Positions 45,463 through 50,312 of a DNA stretch of 64,000 nt are shown here, piece after piece. The notes below the pieces were generated by a model that was given only the letters and a program-made list of their open reading frames with translations, was not told the origin of the DNA and did no database searches. The position numbers and the translations under genes are program-made. The DNA is taken from the NCBI GenBank assembly GCA_944332265.1, contig CALVJQ010000006.1, positions 1,021 through 65,020 of the forward strand, written 5' to 3'. Every line of letters begins with the position of its first letter. The first letter of the stretch is position 1. Source of the DNA: an uncultured Bacilli bacterium. GTDB lineage: Bacteria; Bacillota_I; Bacilli_A; RF39; UBA660.

Positions 45463-46560
45463 TTAGTTACAAATGTCTTTTTTTAATTGAGTTCTTATTA
45501 TTTGATAGTTAGTTAAAAGTCTTTTATCTTGGTTATTTAATTTAAGAGCTTTCTTTATATATCTTATTGATTCTTTTAACTTGTTATTATAGTAACAAGA
45601 GATTGATAATATATCATAAATTGTTTCATTCCATGCTTGTTCTTCATTAATATATGTTAAAGTTTTTTCCTTTATTTTAAGAGCTTGTTTTAAATATTTT
45701 TCACTTTGTTTATAGTCTTTTATTAAATAATATAAATTTCCTAAATCAAAATATGGTTCTCTTAAATAGGGAGCTTCTTTAATAGCTTTTTTATACCACA
45801 TAATTGCTTCTTCAAGATATTCTTTTTGATAGTATGAATAAGCTATATAACGCATGGAAGCACATCTTTCATCTTGCCAAGTTGAAGATGGCAGTTTGAG
45901 ATGTTTATGTAATGTATCAATAGCTTTATCCCACATTTTATAATACATATACTCTCTTCCTAGATAATGGGTATTACGATCATTAAAAGGATTTTCTTTA
46001 ACTGAAAGTTCTAATAAAGCTAAATAAGAAGTTCGTTCTTTTTTGTAATCTTGATAGTGATTTAATACTATGTTAGGAATAAGTATTTCTTTTTCTTTAG
46101 TAGATGAAACAAGAATTTCGTGAACTGCATTAACCCAGGAATAATTATGACGTTGATGAATTTTATTGAGATAGAAAGTAGTTCCTGGCTTACCTTGAGC
46201 ATCAAAGTTCCAATTATAAAGATATCTTGCACGAGTCGTGTCTTTTTGCCATGACTTTTCTAGATGCTTGCGCCAGCCTTTTTCTAATCGTTCATCTAAA
46301 TCTGTACATACACAAATATCAGTATTTTTACTGACGTATGATAATGATTTATTTCGAGCGACATCAAAACGCCAAGGAATTATTTCTTTTTTATATACTT
46401 TTATCTTAGGGCATTTTTTTAGAAGATTTATAGTATTATCGGTTGAACCTGTATCTAACACAACAATTTCATCAGCTTCTTTCATAGATTCATACCACTC
46501 TAAGACATTTTTTTCTTCATTTCTAGCAATAGCATAGACAGCTATTTTATATTTAGTCAT
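45463..46560 (-). CDS. family 2 glycosyltransferase fused to TPR repeats
   Basis: GT2 N-terminus (IAVYAIARNEEKNVLEWYESMKEADEIVVLDTGSTDNT, CVCTDLDE). The C-terminal half has TPR-like YYxxKxYxEAIxxYKKALK repeats. Confidence 0.75.
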   Translation of the reverse strand: MTKYKIAVYAIARNEEKNVLEWYESMKEADEIVVLDTGSTDNTINLLKKCPKIKVYKKEIIPWRFDVARNKSLSYVSKNTDICVCTDLDERLEKGWRKHLEKSWQKDTTRARYLYNWNFDAQGKPGTTFYLNKIHQRHNYSWVNAVHEILVSSTKEKEILIPNIVLNHYQDYKKERTSYLALLELSVKENPFNDRNTHYLGREYMYYKMWDKAIDTLHKHLKLPSSTWQDERCASMRYIAYSYYQKEYLEEAIMWYKKAIKEAPYLREPYFDLGNLYYLIKDYKQSEKYLKQALKIKEKTLTYINEEQAWNETIYDILSISCYYNNKLKESIRYIKKALKLNNQDKRLLTNYQIIRTQLKKDICN

Positions 46561-46656
46561 CTTATCACCTACTATACTTTATGTTAAGCAGTAATTATAT
46601 TTACAGATTTCGGCTATTTTATGTTATAATTATTTATAGTAAAGGGTTGTTAGCTT

Positions 46657-48309
46657 ATGGATAGTAAAAAGAATAATTTTATAAATAAAATAAAAGCTAA
46701 AGTTGCTAATATGAAAGTTAAAAGATTACAAAAAAAAGCAGCTAAAAATAATGTACCTAAAGTAAGTTTCTCAACTAAAATGAAAAGTAAATTTGCTAAT
46801 TTAAAAAACTTTTCATGGGCTAATTTTATTAATTATATTTTTAATTCTAAGAGATTTAAAACTAATACTCTATCTTTATTAGTAATAGTTATTTTCTTAG
46901 TAACTACTATTAATGTATTAACAATGATACTAGGTCTTATCGGGGGGCATCAAAGTACAAGATATTATATTGAAGATAATATAAAATATTTGGAAATTGA
47001 AAATGGTTATATAACAGAAAAATTAATTGTTGAATCAGGAGATGAACTTCCAAATATAAGTGATTATTTTAGTGAAGATTATGAAATAAGAGAGGATGCT
47101 ACTATATCTTATTATTCAGGAAAAGATGGAATTTCTATTGAGAGTTTTACTTATGAAAAAGATGATATTAAATATGTACGTGGATTTCAAGAAATAGATG
47201 TTATTATTAATAATGGTAAAGAATATACAACAAAGTTAGAAATAAGAGATACTACTGAACCTTATGTTATTTTACAAGATTTAACAATTAGTGAAGGTGA
47301 ATCTATTGAAGCTAAATCTTTTGTTAGTTTGTATAATGATAATAGTCAAATAACGGAATATAATGCTTATTATCCCGATAGTATTAATTTTTCTGTTGCG
47401 GGAGTTTATGATGTAAAAATTAAAGTATGTGATTATAGTAATAATTGTGTTGAAGGTATTTCTAAATTAACTGTAACAAAAGGAAGTAATGATTCTAATA
47501 TAGTTAGTAATGATAATAAAAACGAGACAACTTCTTCCGGAGGGAAAAAGCCAGGTAATTCTTCTAGTAGTAAGCCTAGTGGTGGTTCTTCTTCTGGAGG
47601 TGGATCTAGTTCTTCTGGCAGTAGTGGTAATAACAAACCTAGTAAACCGGATGATGATACACCAGCTAGAGTCTTTGTAAAAACAGTTGTAGAAAAAAAT
47701 GCTATTTATAAATTTGATGATTATTATGGGGCTAGGATGAATTATTACGCAAGAGAAGTCACTTATAATTTATATAGCGATGGATATAAAGAAGTCGTTA
47801 ATTATAAAACTCCTTATGATAGTGTTTATGATTCTTCTGGGTATGTAGGTAATATTAAAGGTTTAAATAATGAAGCAACGCAATATATTTCGACTCACTC
47901 ATCGACTCTTAGTAGTGTACAAAATTTATTTTTACAAGAAACTAATAAACAAAGAGAAAAAGCAAATGTTAGCAATTTAAGTCTTGATAAAAACTTAAGT
48001 AAAATTGCTTTAATTAGAGCGATGGAGCTTGCTTATAGTCAATCTCCTGGAACTAATGGTACGCAACATATTAGACCAGACGGGCGAAGATTTGACACAA
48101 TTTATACTGAGTATGGGTATAAAACAAATACACGTGGAGAAAACTTTGTTGATGGAATCTATTCTATTTCCAATTATACTGCTTTTCAATCTTTCGTAAA
48201 GTCATCTGGTCACTTAAAAAATATGACGAATCCAGTCTTTAAAAAGATGGGTGTTGGTAAATTTACTTTTCAGCAAAGAACTTATTGGGTTCAATTGTTT
48301 GCAGAATAA
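46657..48309 (+). CDS. membrane-anchored protein: Ig-like (DUF5011-like) domain, G/S-rich linker, C-terminal CAP/SCP (YkwD-like) domain
   Basis: TM segment [26 protein letters not shown]. Ig-like block [25 protein letters not shown]...[18 protein letters not shown] motifs: [48 protein letters not shown]. Confidence 0.7.
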
Positions 48310-48333: not shown

Positions 48334-48997
48334 ATGGTCCTGTTGGACCTGTCGGACCGGTTGGACCCGTTGGACCTGCTGGACCGGTTGGTCCTGTTGC
48401 TCCTTGTAGTCCTTGTAAACCTTGTGGACCTGTTGGTCCAGTTGGGCCTTCTAAGCCTTGAGTTCCAGTTGCTCCTGCTGGACCGGTAGGCCCTGTTGCT
48501 CCTTGTAGTCCTTGTAAACCTTGTGGACCTGTTGGTCCAGTTGGGCCTTCTAAGCCTTGAGTTCCAGTTGCTCCTGCTGGTCCTGTTGGTCCTGTTGCTC
48601 CACCAGGAATTGTTAAATTAAGAACATAATTAGGGGCAGTACCAGTTATTGACGCAAGAGCTGTTGACCCAGGAGCTCCAGTTTGAACTGTTCCGATTGT
48701 TAAAGTCATAGCAGTTCCTGCTGGACCTGTTGGACCGGTTGCACCTGATACACCTTGAAGTCCTTGAATTCCTTGGGGACCTGTTGGTCCAATTGGACCT
48801 TGAATTCCTTGTACTCCTTGAATACCTTGAGGACCAGTTGGACCGGTTTGGCCTGCTGGACCTGTCGGACCTGTTGGACCAGGAATTGTTCCAGAAGGAT
48901 TATCACGGAAGCCGCAACAACAACCACTATTTGGATGACTTTTACTATAATCATTTATTTTTTTTATTGCATTTTCAATTAAACAGTTTTTACTCAT
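48332..48997 (-). CDS. collagen-like (Gly-X-Thr/Gln triplet) repeat protein, BclA-style
   Basis: Runs of [22 protein letters not shown]. The N-terminal 35 aa contain a CCC cluster. A non-collagen insert ([38 protein letters not shown]) splits two collagen blocks. The ORF ends inside GPT repeats. Confidence 0.8.
48380..48577 (-). repeat. near-perfect 2 x 99-bp tandem duplication inside the collagen-like gene
   Basis: The 33-aa unit [33 protein letters not shown] occurs twice. The DNA copies are offset by 99 nt (e.g. cctgttgc at 48393 and 48492). Confidence 0.85.
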
Positions 48998-49067
48998 AAT
49001 TACCTCCTCACTTTATTTTATTCATGAATTATAAATATGAGTCGATAATTATATAAAAAAAAAGGAT

Positions 49068-50312
49068 TTACCCTATTTCAGTAAATCCTTCTCTTTTTAA
49101 ATATGGATCAATATCTTCATATTTACTATAATTACTTCCAACTATAGTTGTTGACGTAATTTGAGTTATTGTCATTTCTGCATCATTAAATGAATAATTT
49201 GCTTCACCTGTTAGTTTTTCTTTTTCCTTATTATATCTTTCAGCATCTTGATATATCATTTTTACTTCATATGTTCCATTAACTAATAGAGCATAGTCGC
49301 GATACTGAGCAAAGTGAAGATCATATGTTTCTTCTTTTTCATATCCTAAATCCCAATCGAATCCAGTGTGTTTAGTATATACATGGACATTTCCTTGAGA
49401 TTCAATTATAAGACTTGCTTTTTTAGTAGTAGTATTTTGAAATGCATCTGTTGCTACAACGTATACAACATATGACCCAGCTGTAGTATATTTTTGTTCT
49501 GTATCTGAGTCTTGGAACGAATAATTACAACCACTTAAGTCACGACAGTCTTCAACAAATGTACTAGCGTCATAGGTTTGTCCTTCTACTATTGTAACAT
49601 TTCTAATTTCCAGTATTGGACTAGTTGTATCTTGAACAATTATTTTACCTTGTTTTTTTGTACCTTTATAAGTTACTGTAAATGGATATTCTCCTGGTTC
49701 TTCAACTATAACATTAGATAAATCAACAGCATATAATAAATCGTCAACATTGTTACCTACTCCAGGTTTTACATAACTGCTAGTTTTATATGGTAACGAT
49801 TTACCCAACTCTACGGTAACAACTAGAGGTTGAAAGTCCATTTCTGTTTTACGATGAGTAACCCAGTAAGCAAAGCCACATATAAAGATAATAGTTATTA
49901 ATGAAACAATAGCCATTCTATTTTGAAATCTTTGAGCAGATGCAGAACTTTTTTTCTTTTTTAGCTTTTCGGTTTTACGATTCTTTCTTCTTTGCTGCTC
50001 TTTTTTTCTTTCTTCAACATCTATTTGTTCAGGATATCTGGCATTAGGGGATAAATTTACTTCGCCCTCATTAGTTAAAGTAGCAATAGATATTGAACCA
50101 TCACTTTTTAGAGTGTTATCTTTACTAATTAATTCAATAGAGTTTTCAGCTGTTGTTGTTCCTTCTTCAAAATGAGGAATGATAGCTGAAAGGTCACGTT
50201 TTTTTTCAATATATTCTTCACTTTCATCAATCATTGTTGGCATTATTGTAGATTTTGTTTCTTCAGGAGCAGTATTTTCTAATTGCTTTTTGTCTTTTTT
50301 AGAATTATTCAT
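49068..50312 (-). CDS. membrane-anchored protein with Ig-like (DUF5011-like) domain and unknown C-terminal domain
   Basis: TM segment MAIVSLITIIFICGFAYWV. The block DTTSPILEIRNVTIVEGQTYDASTF...GSYVVYVVATDAFQN is paralogous to 46657-48309 and 58713-59999. Start set at ATG 50312, 9 nt after GAAGGGAG; the ORF track uses TTG 50321. Confidence 0.65.
   Translation of the reverse strand: MNNSKKDKKQLENTAPEETKSTIMPTMIDESEEYIEKKRDLSAIIPHFEEGTTTAENSIELISKDNTLKSDGSISIATLTNEGEVNLSPNARYPEQIDVEERKKEQQRRKNRKTEKLKKKKSSASAQRFQNRMAIVSLITIIFICGFAYWVTHRKTEMDFQPLVVTVELGKSLPYKTSSYVKPGVGNNVDDLLYAVDLSNVIVEEPGEYPFTVTYKGTKKQGKIIVQDTTSPILEIRNVTIVEGQTYDASTFVEDCRDLSGCNYSFQDSDTEQKYTTAGSYVVYVVATDAFQNTTTKKASLIIESQGNVHVYTKHTGFDWDLGYEKEETYDLHFAQYRDYALLVNGTYEVKMIYQDAERYNKEKEKLTGEANYSFNDAEMTITQITSTTIVGSNYSKYEDIDPYLKREGFTEIG

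Follow-up and report, generated by a model that had tools for sequence, protein, structure and literature searches.

A candidate SgtA-like glycosyltransferase and collagen-like spore-surface substrate encoded by an uncultured RF39 bacterium

The subject of this study is a cluster of four genes in the window, by which we mean the 64,000-nucleotide stretch of DNA analyzed here from the genome of an uncultured Bacilli bacterium of the RF39 lineage. One gene encodes a family 2 glycosyltransferase (GT) with C-terminal tetratricopeptide repeats (TPRs), another encodes a collagen-like protein, and the other two encode proteins that combine a transmembrane (TM) helix with immunoglobulin (Ig)-like domains, one of them with an additional CAP domain. 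We consider it probable that the GT2-TPR gene and the collagen-like gene form a two-gene core encoding an O-glycosyltransferase similar to SgtA of Clostridioides difficile and its spore-surface substrate, both expressed in the mother cell. An earlier note on this DNA had taken the four genes, together with a third Ig-like paralogue, to be an undescribed exosporium-like or cell-surface glycoprotein system, in which the CAP/Ig proteins might be structural or maturation partners. All five genes are present where it placed them, and the GT and collagen-like genes do behave as a linked unit, conserved as a pair of the enzyme-substrate type that SgtA and BclA3 exemplify. That kind of system is, however, already known from C. 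difficile. What appears to be new is the uncultured lineage and a candidate substrate that has no C-terminal domain, and that carries a Cys-cluster N-terminus and an internal 38 amino acid (aa) insert.

Results

An enzyme with the architecture of SgtA

Domains were assigned with Pfam and NCBIfam, paralogy with BLASTP, structural models with AlphaFold (AF2), and fold matches with Foldseek. The GT2-TPR glycosyltransferase (365 aa; 45463-46560, minus strand) contains a Glycos_transf_2 domain at aa 11-116 (E 1.8e-9) and a TPR region at aa 234-300 (TPR_2, E 1.5e-13). The DLD motif (D87 and D89) is invariant in 13 aligned sequences, with more than 100 invariant positions overall, and the enzyme is 67-74% identical within the genus and ~55% identical across the family, which together with the number of invariant residues indicates that it is under purifying selection. 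The AF2 model (pLDDT 94.3, pTM 0.86) has a Rossmann-like GT-A fold followed by a C-terminal half of ten helices (aa 180-364) that form ~5 TPR-like helix pairs.

The comparator is SgtA (CD3350), a 358 aa protein in which four TPRs come after a GT-A domain, encoded immediately upstream of bclA3, which transfers β-O-GlcNAc from UDP-GlcNAc to Thr, and also to Ser, of GPT peptides in a Mn-dependent manner (PMC7157674). The comparison was made with the published description of SgtA only, and in these terms the window's enzyme is similar in having a GT-A domain with a DxD motif (PF00535, E 1.8e-9), in having C-terminal TPRs within a protein of ~360 aa (365 vs 358 aa), and in being encoded beside a GPT-rich collagen-like protein without a signal peptide in a host that probably forms spores, the two genes here being 1.77 kb apart with one gene between them. 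It is therefore in architecture, size, and genomic partner that the enzyme matches SgtA. No C. difficile entry was present in the homologue clusters that were looked up or in a second homologue search, which was seeded with a Clostridia-type GT adjoining a collagen gene and returned Oscillospiraceae only; the homologue search in named genomes gave 80 loci, all from RF39-like metagenome-assembled genomes (MAGs). One homologue cluster with the length of SgtA (P0253, 358 aa, 100 members) proved to be from freshwater phage. Some of the larger Clostridia-type genomes have two or three tandem copies of the GT2-TPR gene (L142 in genome G322, L143 in G168, L144 in G277), and in L143 the copies lie near two collagen-like genes.

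The best full-length Foldseek matches to the GT model are SunS and ThuS (PDB 7msn and 7msk; E 1.7e-17), in which a GT-A domain is likewise joined to TPR-like helices, C-terminal to it, for recognition of a peptide substrate, though they are only 16-18% identical to the window's enzyme. Both act directly on peptides, namely small bacteriocin precursors that receive the sugar on Cys (in the case of ThuS also on Ser and Thr) and that are encoded with export and immunity genes. A glycocin system can be set aside for the window, since no precursor, export, immunity, or thiol-disulfide genes are found among the neighbors, and it is the fold alone that is shared. The TPR half also resembles OGT, SPY, and GmaR, and in a phmmer search of PDB sequences the only significant match to the catalytic half was the GT domain of GmaR (22ao, E 1.7e-6). 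Listeria GmaR is similar in combining a GT2 catalytic domain with TPRs and in acting directly on a structural protein, but it is larger and is also an anti-repressor. A profile search of the source genome found no flagellin (PF00669), and so glycosylation of flagellin by a GmaR-type enzyme was also rejected.

A collagen-like protein that ends within its repeat

The collagen-like protein (221 aa; 48332-48997, minus strand; Pfam Collagen PF01391, E 5e-23) begins with a 39 aa hydrophilic domain that ends in SGCCCGF, followed by ~19 G-X-Y triplets, a 38 aa non-collagen, β-type insert ending LNLTIPG, and ~29 further triplets, and it terminates inside this second G-X-Y block. Directly downstream is an intrinsic terminator hairpin (AAAAAGGATG-ttat-CATCCTTTTT; 48310-48331), which is bidirectional and common to the collagen-like gene and the convergent Ig-CAP gene. 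Within the second block a 99-bp (33 aa) unit is present in 2.3 copies of 95% identity (48375-48601), which marks a recent duplication, and within the genus the collagen region differs greatly in length from one genome to another. By inspection of the translation, the protein has no signal peptide, LPXTG-type signal, or TM segment, which fits assembly from the mother-cell cytoplasm rather than a Scl-type adhesin.

BclA, the glycoprotein of the exosporium nap in the Bacillus anthracis/cereus group, is expressed from a late mother-cell promoter and has a collagen-like GXT region that is glycosylated on Thr, although other enzymes are responsible for this glycosylation and bclA is flanked by a rhamnose operon. 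The window's protein shares with the BclA family a GPT-rich G-X-Y region and a hydrophilic N-terminus without a signal peptide, but it does not have a BclA_C/C1q-like C-terminal domain, and it has the SGCCCGF Cys cluster in its N-terminal domain. It also differs from BclA3, predicted at 58.2 kDa and with an extended C-terminal region containing four TMHMM-predicted helices (PMC7157674), in being only 221 aa long and in ending inside the collagen repeat. The positional orthologues next to the GT in related genomes share an NNxxRAxxKIxxxxKxxxxxCC(C) N-terminus, GPT/GAT repeats, and often the same insert. Some lack a C-terminal domain, as in the window (L051, L063, L080, L106, L109, and L113), and others have globular C-termini, among them two that are BclA_C-like though both below the Pfam cut-off (L084, E 2.6e-8; L066, E 4.9e-5); the L084 protein matches B. 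anthracis BclA (PDB 1wck, E 6.6e-16). The window's protein would thus belong with BclA in function class, though without the C-terminal domain that defines the family.

Recurrent pairing of the two genes

Throughout the genus the order of genes is a 290 aa secreted protein, a sortase-domain protein, a 1390 aa protein, the GT (on the opposite strand), the Ig-CAP protein, the collagen-like protein, a 417 aa TM-Ig protein (TM-Ig417), a ~1000 aa protein, and DUF1292, and because this synteny covers every neighbor it says little on function. More informative are the exceptions. The Ig-CAP gene is absent in L027, L032, and L036-L038, and in L027 and L037 the collagen-like gene directly abuts the GT gene on the same strand, which makes collagen then GT the ancestral order and the Ig-CAP gene of the window an insertion between them. 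In the genus loci L023, L026, and L028 no collagen gene was detected at this position.

Eighty loci from other genera were sampled, with GT identities of 52-69%, and a collagen-like open reading frame (ORF) is found no more than 600 bp from the GT in 36 of them. Where at least 1.5 kb of upstream sequence is available (61 loci), the GT is directly preceded by a co-oriented collagen-like gene in 28, and 35 have one within 1.5 kb. In several loci the collagen ORF reaches or overlaps the beginning of the GT match, and stop and start overlap in L041, L086, L106, and L108. In this family the order is collagen then GT, unlike C. difficile, where sgtA precedes bclA3, and unlike that pair the one in the window is split by an opposite-strand gene and a terminator. 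The source genome contains exactly one collagen gene in 1.42 Mb, so that chance adjacency to the GT would be of the order of 0.1%. Among 61 relatives, 25 have both GT and collagen genes, 1 has the GT only, 15 have collagen only, and 20 have neither (Fisher p = 8e-6, a value that ignores phylogeny, which confounds it); collagen genes are therefore present somewhere in the genome of 25/26 GT-positive relatives.

The pairing is seen again in another phylum, in Clostridia-type genomes (L143, L145, L149, and L150) whose GT homologues are 25-50% identical, and it is also carried by phage tail-fiber regions (L124, L153, L157, and L159). A freshwater phage-like contig has two collagen ORFs upstream of a GT homologue, and Actinomycetia phage DSL-LC01 has annotated collagen genes upstream of one. 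In L159 a Peptidase_S74 fiber gene is followed by Collagen, GT, and Collagen, and in L157 the collagen ORF is convergent with the GT homologue. It is this recurrence in unrelated backgrounds, with differing gene orders, that provides the strongest argument for the collagen-like protein being the substrate of the GT. The GT homologues that adjoin GPT/GAT collagen-like genes in phage-type contexts (L124:2535-6077, L153:1-5080, L157:4001-6706, L159:424-5736, and L152:2-2162) are of 37-46% identity; the database entry for L152 is an unverified "Bacteriophage sp." fragment, which may come from a chromosome. These contexts suggest that the same enzyme family may glycosylate the collagen-like fibers of phages. 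With regard to co-conservation in relatives, on which the earlier note had made its single system depend, the GT and collagen-like genes are recurrently paired, whereas the Ig-CAP gene is facultative and does not accompany the pair outside the genus.

A mother-cell-type promoter element

A CATAnnnTA-type -10 element, CATAAAGTA (46583-46575, minus strand), lies 23 nt upstream of the start codon of the GT gene, immediately 5' to the ribosome-binding site (RBS) AGGTGA. CATAnnnTA occupies a similar place before GT genes and before the adjacent collagen genes in general, 23-32 nt from the start codon and next to the RBS on its 5' side. The exact motif precedes the GT in 13 of 17 genus orthologues, that of the window included, in 47/100 loci family-wide, and it precedes 33 of the 64 collagen-like ORFs in the loci of relatives. 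The collagen gene of the genus relative L027 has the exact motif CATAAACTA. Genome-wide, only 15 of 1251 genes (1.2%) of the source genome carry CATAnnnTA 20-35 nt before the start, and in addition to the GT they include CotE, SpoIIP, two DacB-type carboxypeptidases, and a triple-LysM protein (C7:9772-10281, C37:1390-2280, C12:9814-10863, C20:6040-7245, and C2:2291-2740). When sequences were anchored on the motif, C was enriched 17 nt upstream of it (25/76), giving AC-N16-CATAnnnTA, which we take to be the B. subtilis sigma-K consensus. The GT -10 element is thus probably of mother-cell type, recognized by sigma-K or sigma-E, as judged by its sequence and position.

The source genome is a 1.42-Mb MAG of ~25% GC in 48 contigs, and its closest named relatives are gut MAGs described as "uncultured Bacilli/Tenericutes," for example CAG:877, CAG:710, and Candidatus Onthousia. 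The sporulation genes that the earlier note had reported in the window are confirmed, with spoVAC, spoVAD, and spoVAEB at 3005-4744 and cotJB and cotJC at 34710-35673, and the genome also encodes SpoIVA (349 bits), CotE, SpoIIP, and two sigma-E/K-type sigma factors. RF39 was predicted to form spores in a published survey (PMC10868615), and the source organism is itself a probable spore-former. Directly before the RBS of the cotJB-cotJC operon (34660-34709) is AATAATATA, with the same A-for-C variant as is found before the window's collagen-like gene; this variant occurs in 11.8% of genes and is therefore no evidence of a mother-cell promoter.

The Ig-like neighbors

The gene between the pair encodes a 550 aa protein (46657-48309, plus strand) with a TM helix, an Ig-like domain, a G/S linker at ~aa 292-333, and a CAP domain at aa 427-548 (E 1.8e-9). 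It is a full-length paralogue, at 30% identity (E 3e-54), of a 428 aa TM-Ig-CAP protein encoded at 58713-59999 on the minus strand (CAP, E 2e-17), unlinked to the GT/collagen pair. Both exceed the CAP cut-off (PF00188; 38.9 and 64.5 bits vs 21.1), and their matches to the YkwD family (TIGR02909) are, at 51.7 and 81 bits, far under its cut-off of 171 bits. The TM-anchored TM-Ig417 (49068-50321, minus strand, with a likely ATG at 50312, the position at which the earlier note ended the cluster) has no Pfam match and shares with the two paralogues only a block of ~88 aa, the "DTTxP" block (E 3e-5 and 3e-6). The Ig-like block that the earlier note saw in all three proteins is borne out by these matches and by the AlphaFold model of TM-Ig417, in which it is Ig/Rib-like. 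The model consists of a disordered cytoplasmic N-terminus, a TM helix at aa 127-156, tandem Ig/Rib-like domains, and an α/β C-terminal domain, with an ectodomain pLDDT >85. Its best PDB match is Rib2R (6s5y, E 7.6e-8), the others being generic Ig/Rib/cadherin-like folds, and the fold search with this model gave no functional clue.

The TM-Ig417 gene is preceded by a sigma-A-type promoter, TTGAAA-N17-TGTATATT (50348-50376, minus strand), with a terminator hairpin before it, and this arrangement is kept across the genus. Extended -10 elements of sigma-A type are found at TM-Ig417 (TGTATATT), the 550 aa Ig-CAP gene (TGTTATAAT), the 428 aa Ig-CAP gene (TGATATACT), the 1390 aa gene, and DUF1292, and they are conserved across the genus where orthologues are comparable. 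The role of structural or maturation partners that had been assigned to the CAP/Ig proteins is not upheld: Ig-CAP is facultative, and all three genes have sigma-A-type promoters rather than CATAnnnTA. In the loci of other genera, no association of Ig-CAP with the GT/collagen pair was found. From these features the TM-Ig and TM-Ig-CAP genes look like separate, sigma-A-driven envelope genes.

A TM-Ig417-like gene directly precedes the GT in no fewer than 13 loci outside the genus, and these loci are mostly without a collagen gene. The context there is dacB, spmA, spmB, a 220 aa TM protein, the TM-Ig417-like protein, and the GT, followed by a sortase on the opposite strand, and several of these loci have, ahead of the GT, a terminator-like hairpin together with a CATAnnnTA that belongs to the GT. 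The TM-Ig417 gene is accordingly placed, on genomic context, as a long-term neighbor of the GT across genera that would be transcribed as a separate unit behind a terminator, and we take the adjacency to be synteny that has persisted beside a sporulation operon, with a functional link possible. From our reading of the translated ORFs in L047, L052, L082, and L091 (~100-3100 of each), all of other genera, a dacB-spmA-spmB-like block lies a few genes before the GT, which places the GT among sporulation genes there; in the window the block lies elsewhere. On the other side of the GT, at 38661-41208, the gene for the secreted Cys-rich 290 aa protein, which ends in a sortase sorting signal (NPDTG, a hydrophobic segment, and KKNNK), is divergent from that for a 526 aa protein with a C-terminal sortase domain. 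This sortase gene is the convergent neighbor of the GT in at least 23 of the 80 related loci.

Discussion

The GT2-TPR enzyme would be a cytoplasmic protein O-glycosyltransferase of the SgtA kind, in which the TPR half binds the collagen-like protein and the GT-A half moves a sugar from a nucleotide-sugar donor to the Thr (or Ser) in the Y position of GPT/GAT triplets. Both genes would be expressed in the mother cell during sporulation, and the glycosylated collagen-like protein would be laid on the outermost spore layer as a filamentous, nap-like component. The N-terminal Cys cluster possibly fixes the protein to the spore, and the 38 aa β-type insert may replace the missing C-terminal trimerization domain.

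Several observations weigh against this proposal. About 40% of family loci have a GT without a nearby collagen gene and have TM-Ig417-like and sortase genes as neighbors instead, and one GT-positive genome (G036) gives no collagen match. In the window itself, the opposite-strand gene and the terminator between the GT and collagen-like genes mean that the two are not co-transcribed, and the absence of a BclA_C/C1q-like domain sets the collagen-like protein apart from the BclA family. Furthermore, the window's collagen-like gene does not have an exact CATAnnnTA; the variant AATAAAATA at -25 was rejected as promoter evidence, since 11.8% of genes carry it by chance, and a sigma-70-like match is also present upstream of the gene, though at 25% GC a generic sigma-70 scan is uninformative (58 sites found vs 45.5 expected). 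A candidate late mother-cell motif, of the sort that the earlier note had proposed to look for, is present and conserved at the GT, and does not extend to the TM-Ig and TM-Ig-CAP genes, which are of sigma-A type, or in exact form to the window's collagen-like gene.

If the GT instead modified some other protein, such as the cytoplasmic tail of TM-Ig417 or a coat protein, or made a polysaccharide, then the collagen adjacency would be incidental and the many family loci without an adjacent collagen gene, which are always beside TM-Ig417-like and sortase genes, would be explained, as would G036. We give this little credence, as the adjacency recurs independently in distant bacteria and phages with differing gene orders, a GT-A domain joined to TPRs is the architecture of enzymes that act directly on proteins or peptides, and all but one of the GT-positive relatives have collagen genes in the genome. 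It is somewhat easier to envision, though still unlikely, that the GT, the collagen-like protein, TM-Ig417, and the two TM-Ig-CAP proteins work together as a single surface glycoprotein system, with the Ig/CAP proteins serving to anchor the collagen glycoprotein or to bring about its maturation. The gene order kept throughout the genus, the TM-Ig417-like genes directly upstream of the GT in other genera, and weak matches of the CAP proteins to the YkwD family and to phage "sporulation protein" CAP domains all favor such a system. The genus synteny, however, extends to the sortase, the 1390 aa protein, and DUF1292 alike and is uninformative, Ig-CAP is missing from some genus loci and from the pair in other genera, and the YkwD scores fall well short of that family's threshold. 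In addition, a terminator and then the GT's own CATAnnnTA separate the TM-Ig417-like genes from the GT, the loci in which the two are adjacent mostly have no collagen gene, and every TM-Ig(-CAP) gene has the sigma-A extended -10.

A different question is whether the pair has a role on the spore at all. It could be a phage-derived remnant, a collagen-like tail-fiber fragment with its fiber-modifying GT, given that the entire GT is covered by a match to phrog_13126 (E 4.5e-107), that the collagen-like protein matches tail-fiber PHROGs, with the 38 aa insert inside the match to the phage tail-protein profile phrog_819 (aa 39-170), and that homologous GTs adjoin collagen-like fiber genes in phage contigs and in phage DSL-LC01. 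We consider this very unlikely, because the window neighbors have no phage-type Pfam domains, the chromosomal position is fixed across the genus and partly across the family, the GT is under purifying selection, the sporulation-type promoter element is conserved, and positional orthologues have BclA_C-like C-termini. Alternatively, the collagen-like protein, with or without glycosylation, might serve as an Scl/Lcl-type adhesin on the surface of vegetative cells, as it matches the NCBIfam models SclB, Lcl, and SclA (E ~1e-20). These scores (72-78 bits vs cut-offs of 325-500) derive from the collagen repeats alone, and as the protein has neither signal peptide nor anchor, membership in the Scl1/Scl2/Lcl LPXTG adhesins was rejected. 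The cytoplasmic GT partner and the mother-cell-type promoter in relatives also argue against an adhesin, making it highly improbable. An SgtA-like glycosyltransferase with a collagen-like spore-surface substrate thus remains the reading that we prefer.

One extension of this reading is speculative, and we offer it tentatively, as conceivable rather than likely. A dedicated GT, of a subfamily recognizable by PWRFDxARN and HYLGREYM motifs, and its collagen substrate may be a two-gene cassette that moves between phage tail-fiber modules and endospore surface genes, in which case the RF39 protein could be a domesticated phage fiber reused as spore nap; its lack of a C-terminal domain and the position of its insert within a match to a phage tail profile point in this direction. 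By analogy with SunS and ThuS, the structurally closest enzymes, the GT might also S-glycosylate the conserved Cys cluster immediately before the first GPT triplet.

The gut Bacilli of the RF39 lineage are abundant and uncultured, have reduced genomes, and are only predicted to sporulate. That prediction gains support from a conserved gene pair, probably expressed in the mother cell, for a probable spore-surface glycoprotein and its glycosyltransferase. The pair also provides a possible surface antigen or glycan handle by which RF39 spores might be enriched or visualized, and CATAnnnTA just before the RBS is a practical marker with which to predict the mother-cell regulon in RF39-type genomes. 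Beyond RF39, the location of GT2-TPR genes beside genes for GPT-repeat collagen-like proteins, seen in phages as well as in Bacilli and Clostridia-type genomes, and hence in viruses and distant spore-formers alike, is a broader pattern of interest, and suggests a general substrate rule for the thousands of functionally unannotated "TPR-containing family 2 glycosyltransferases."

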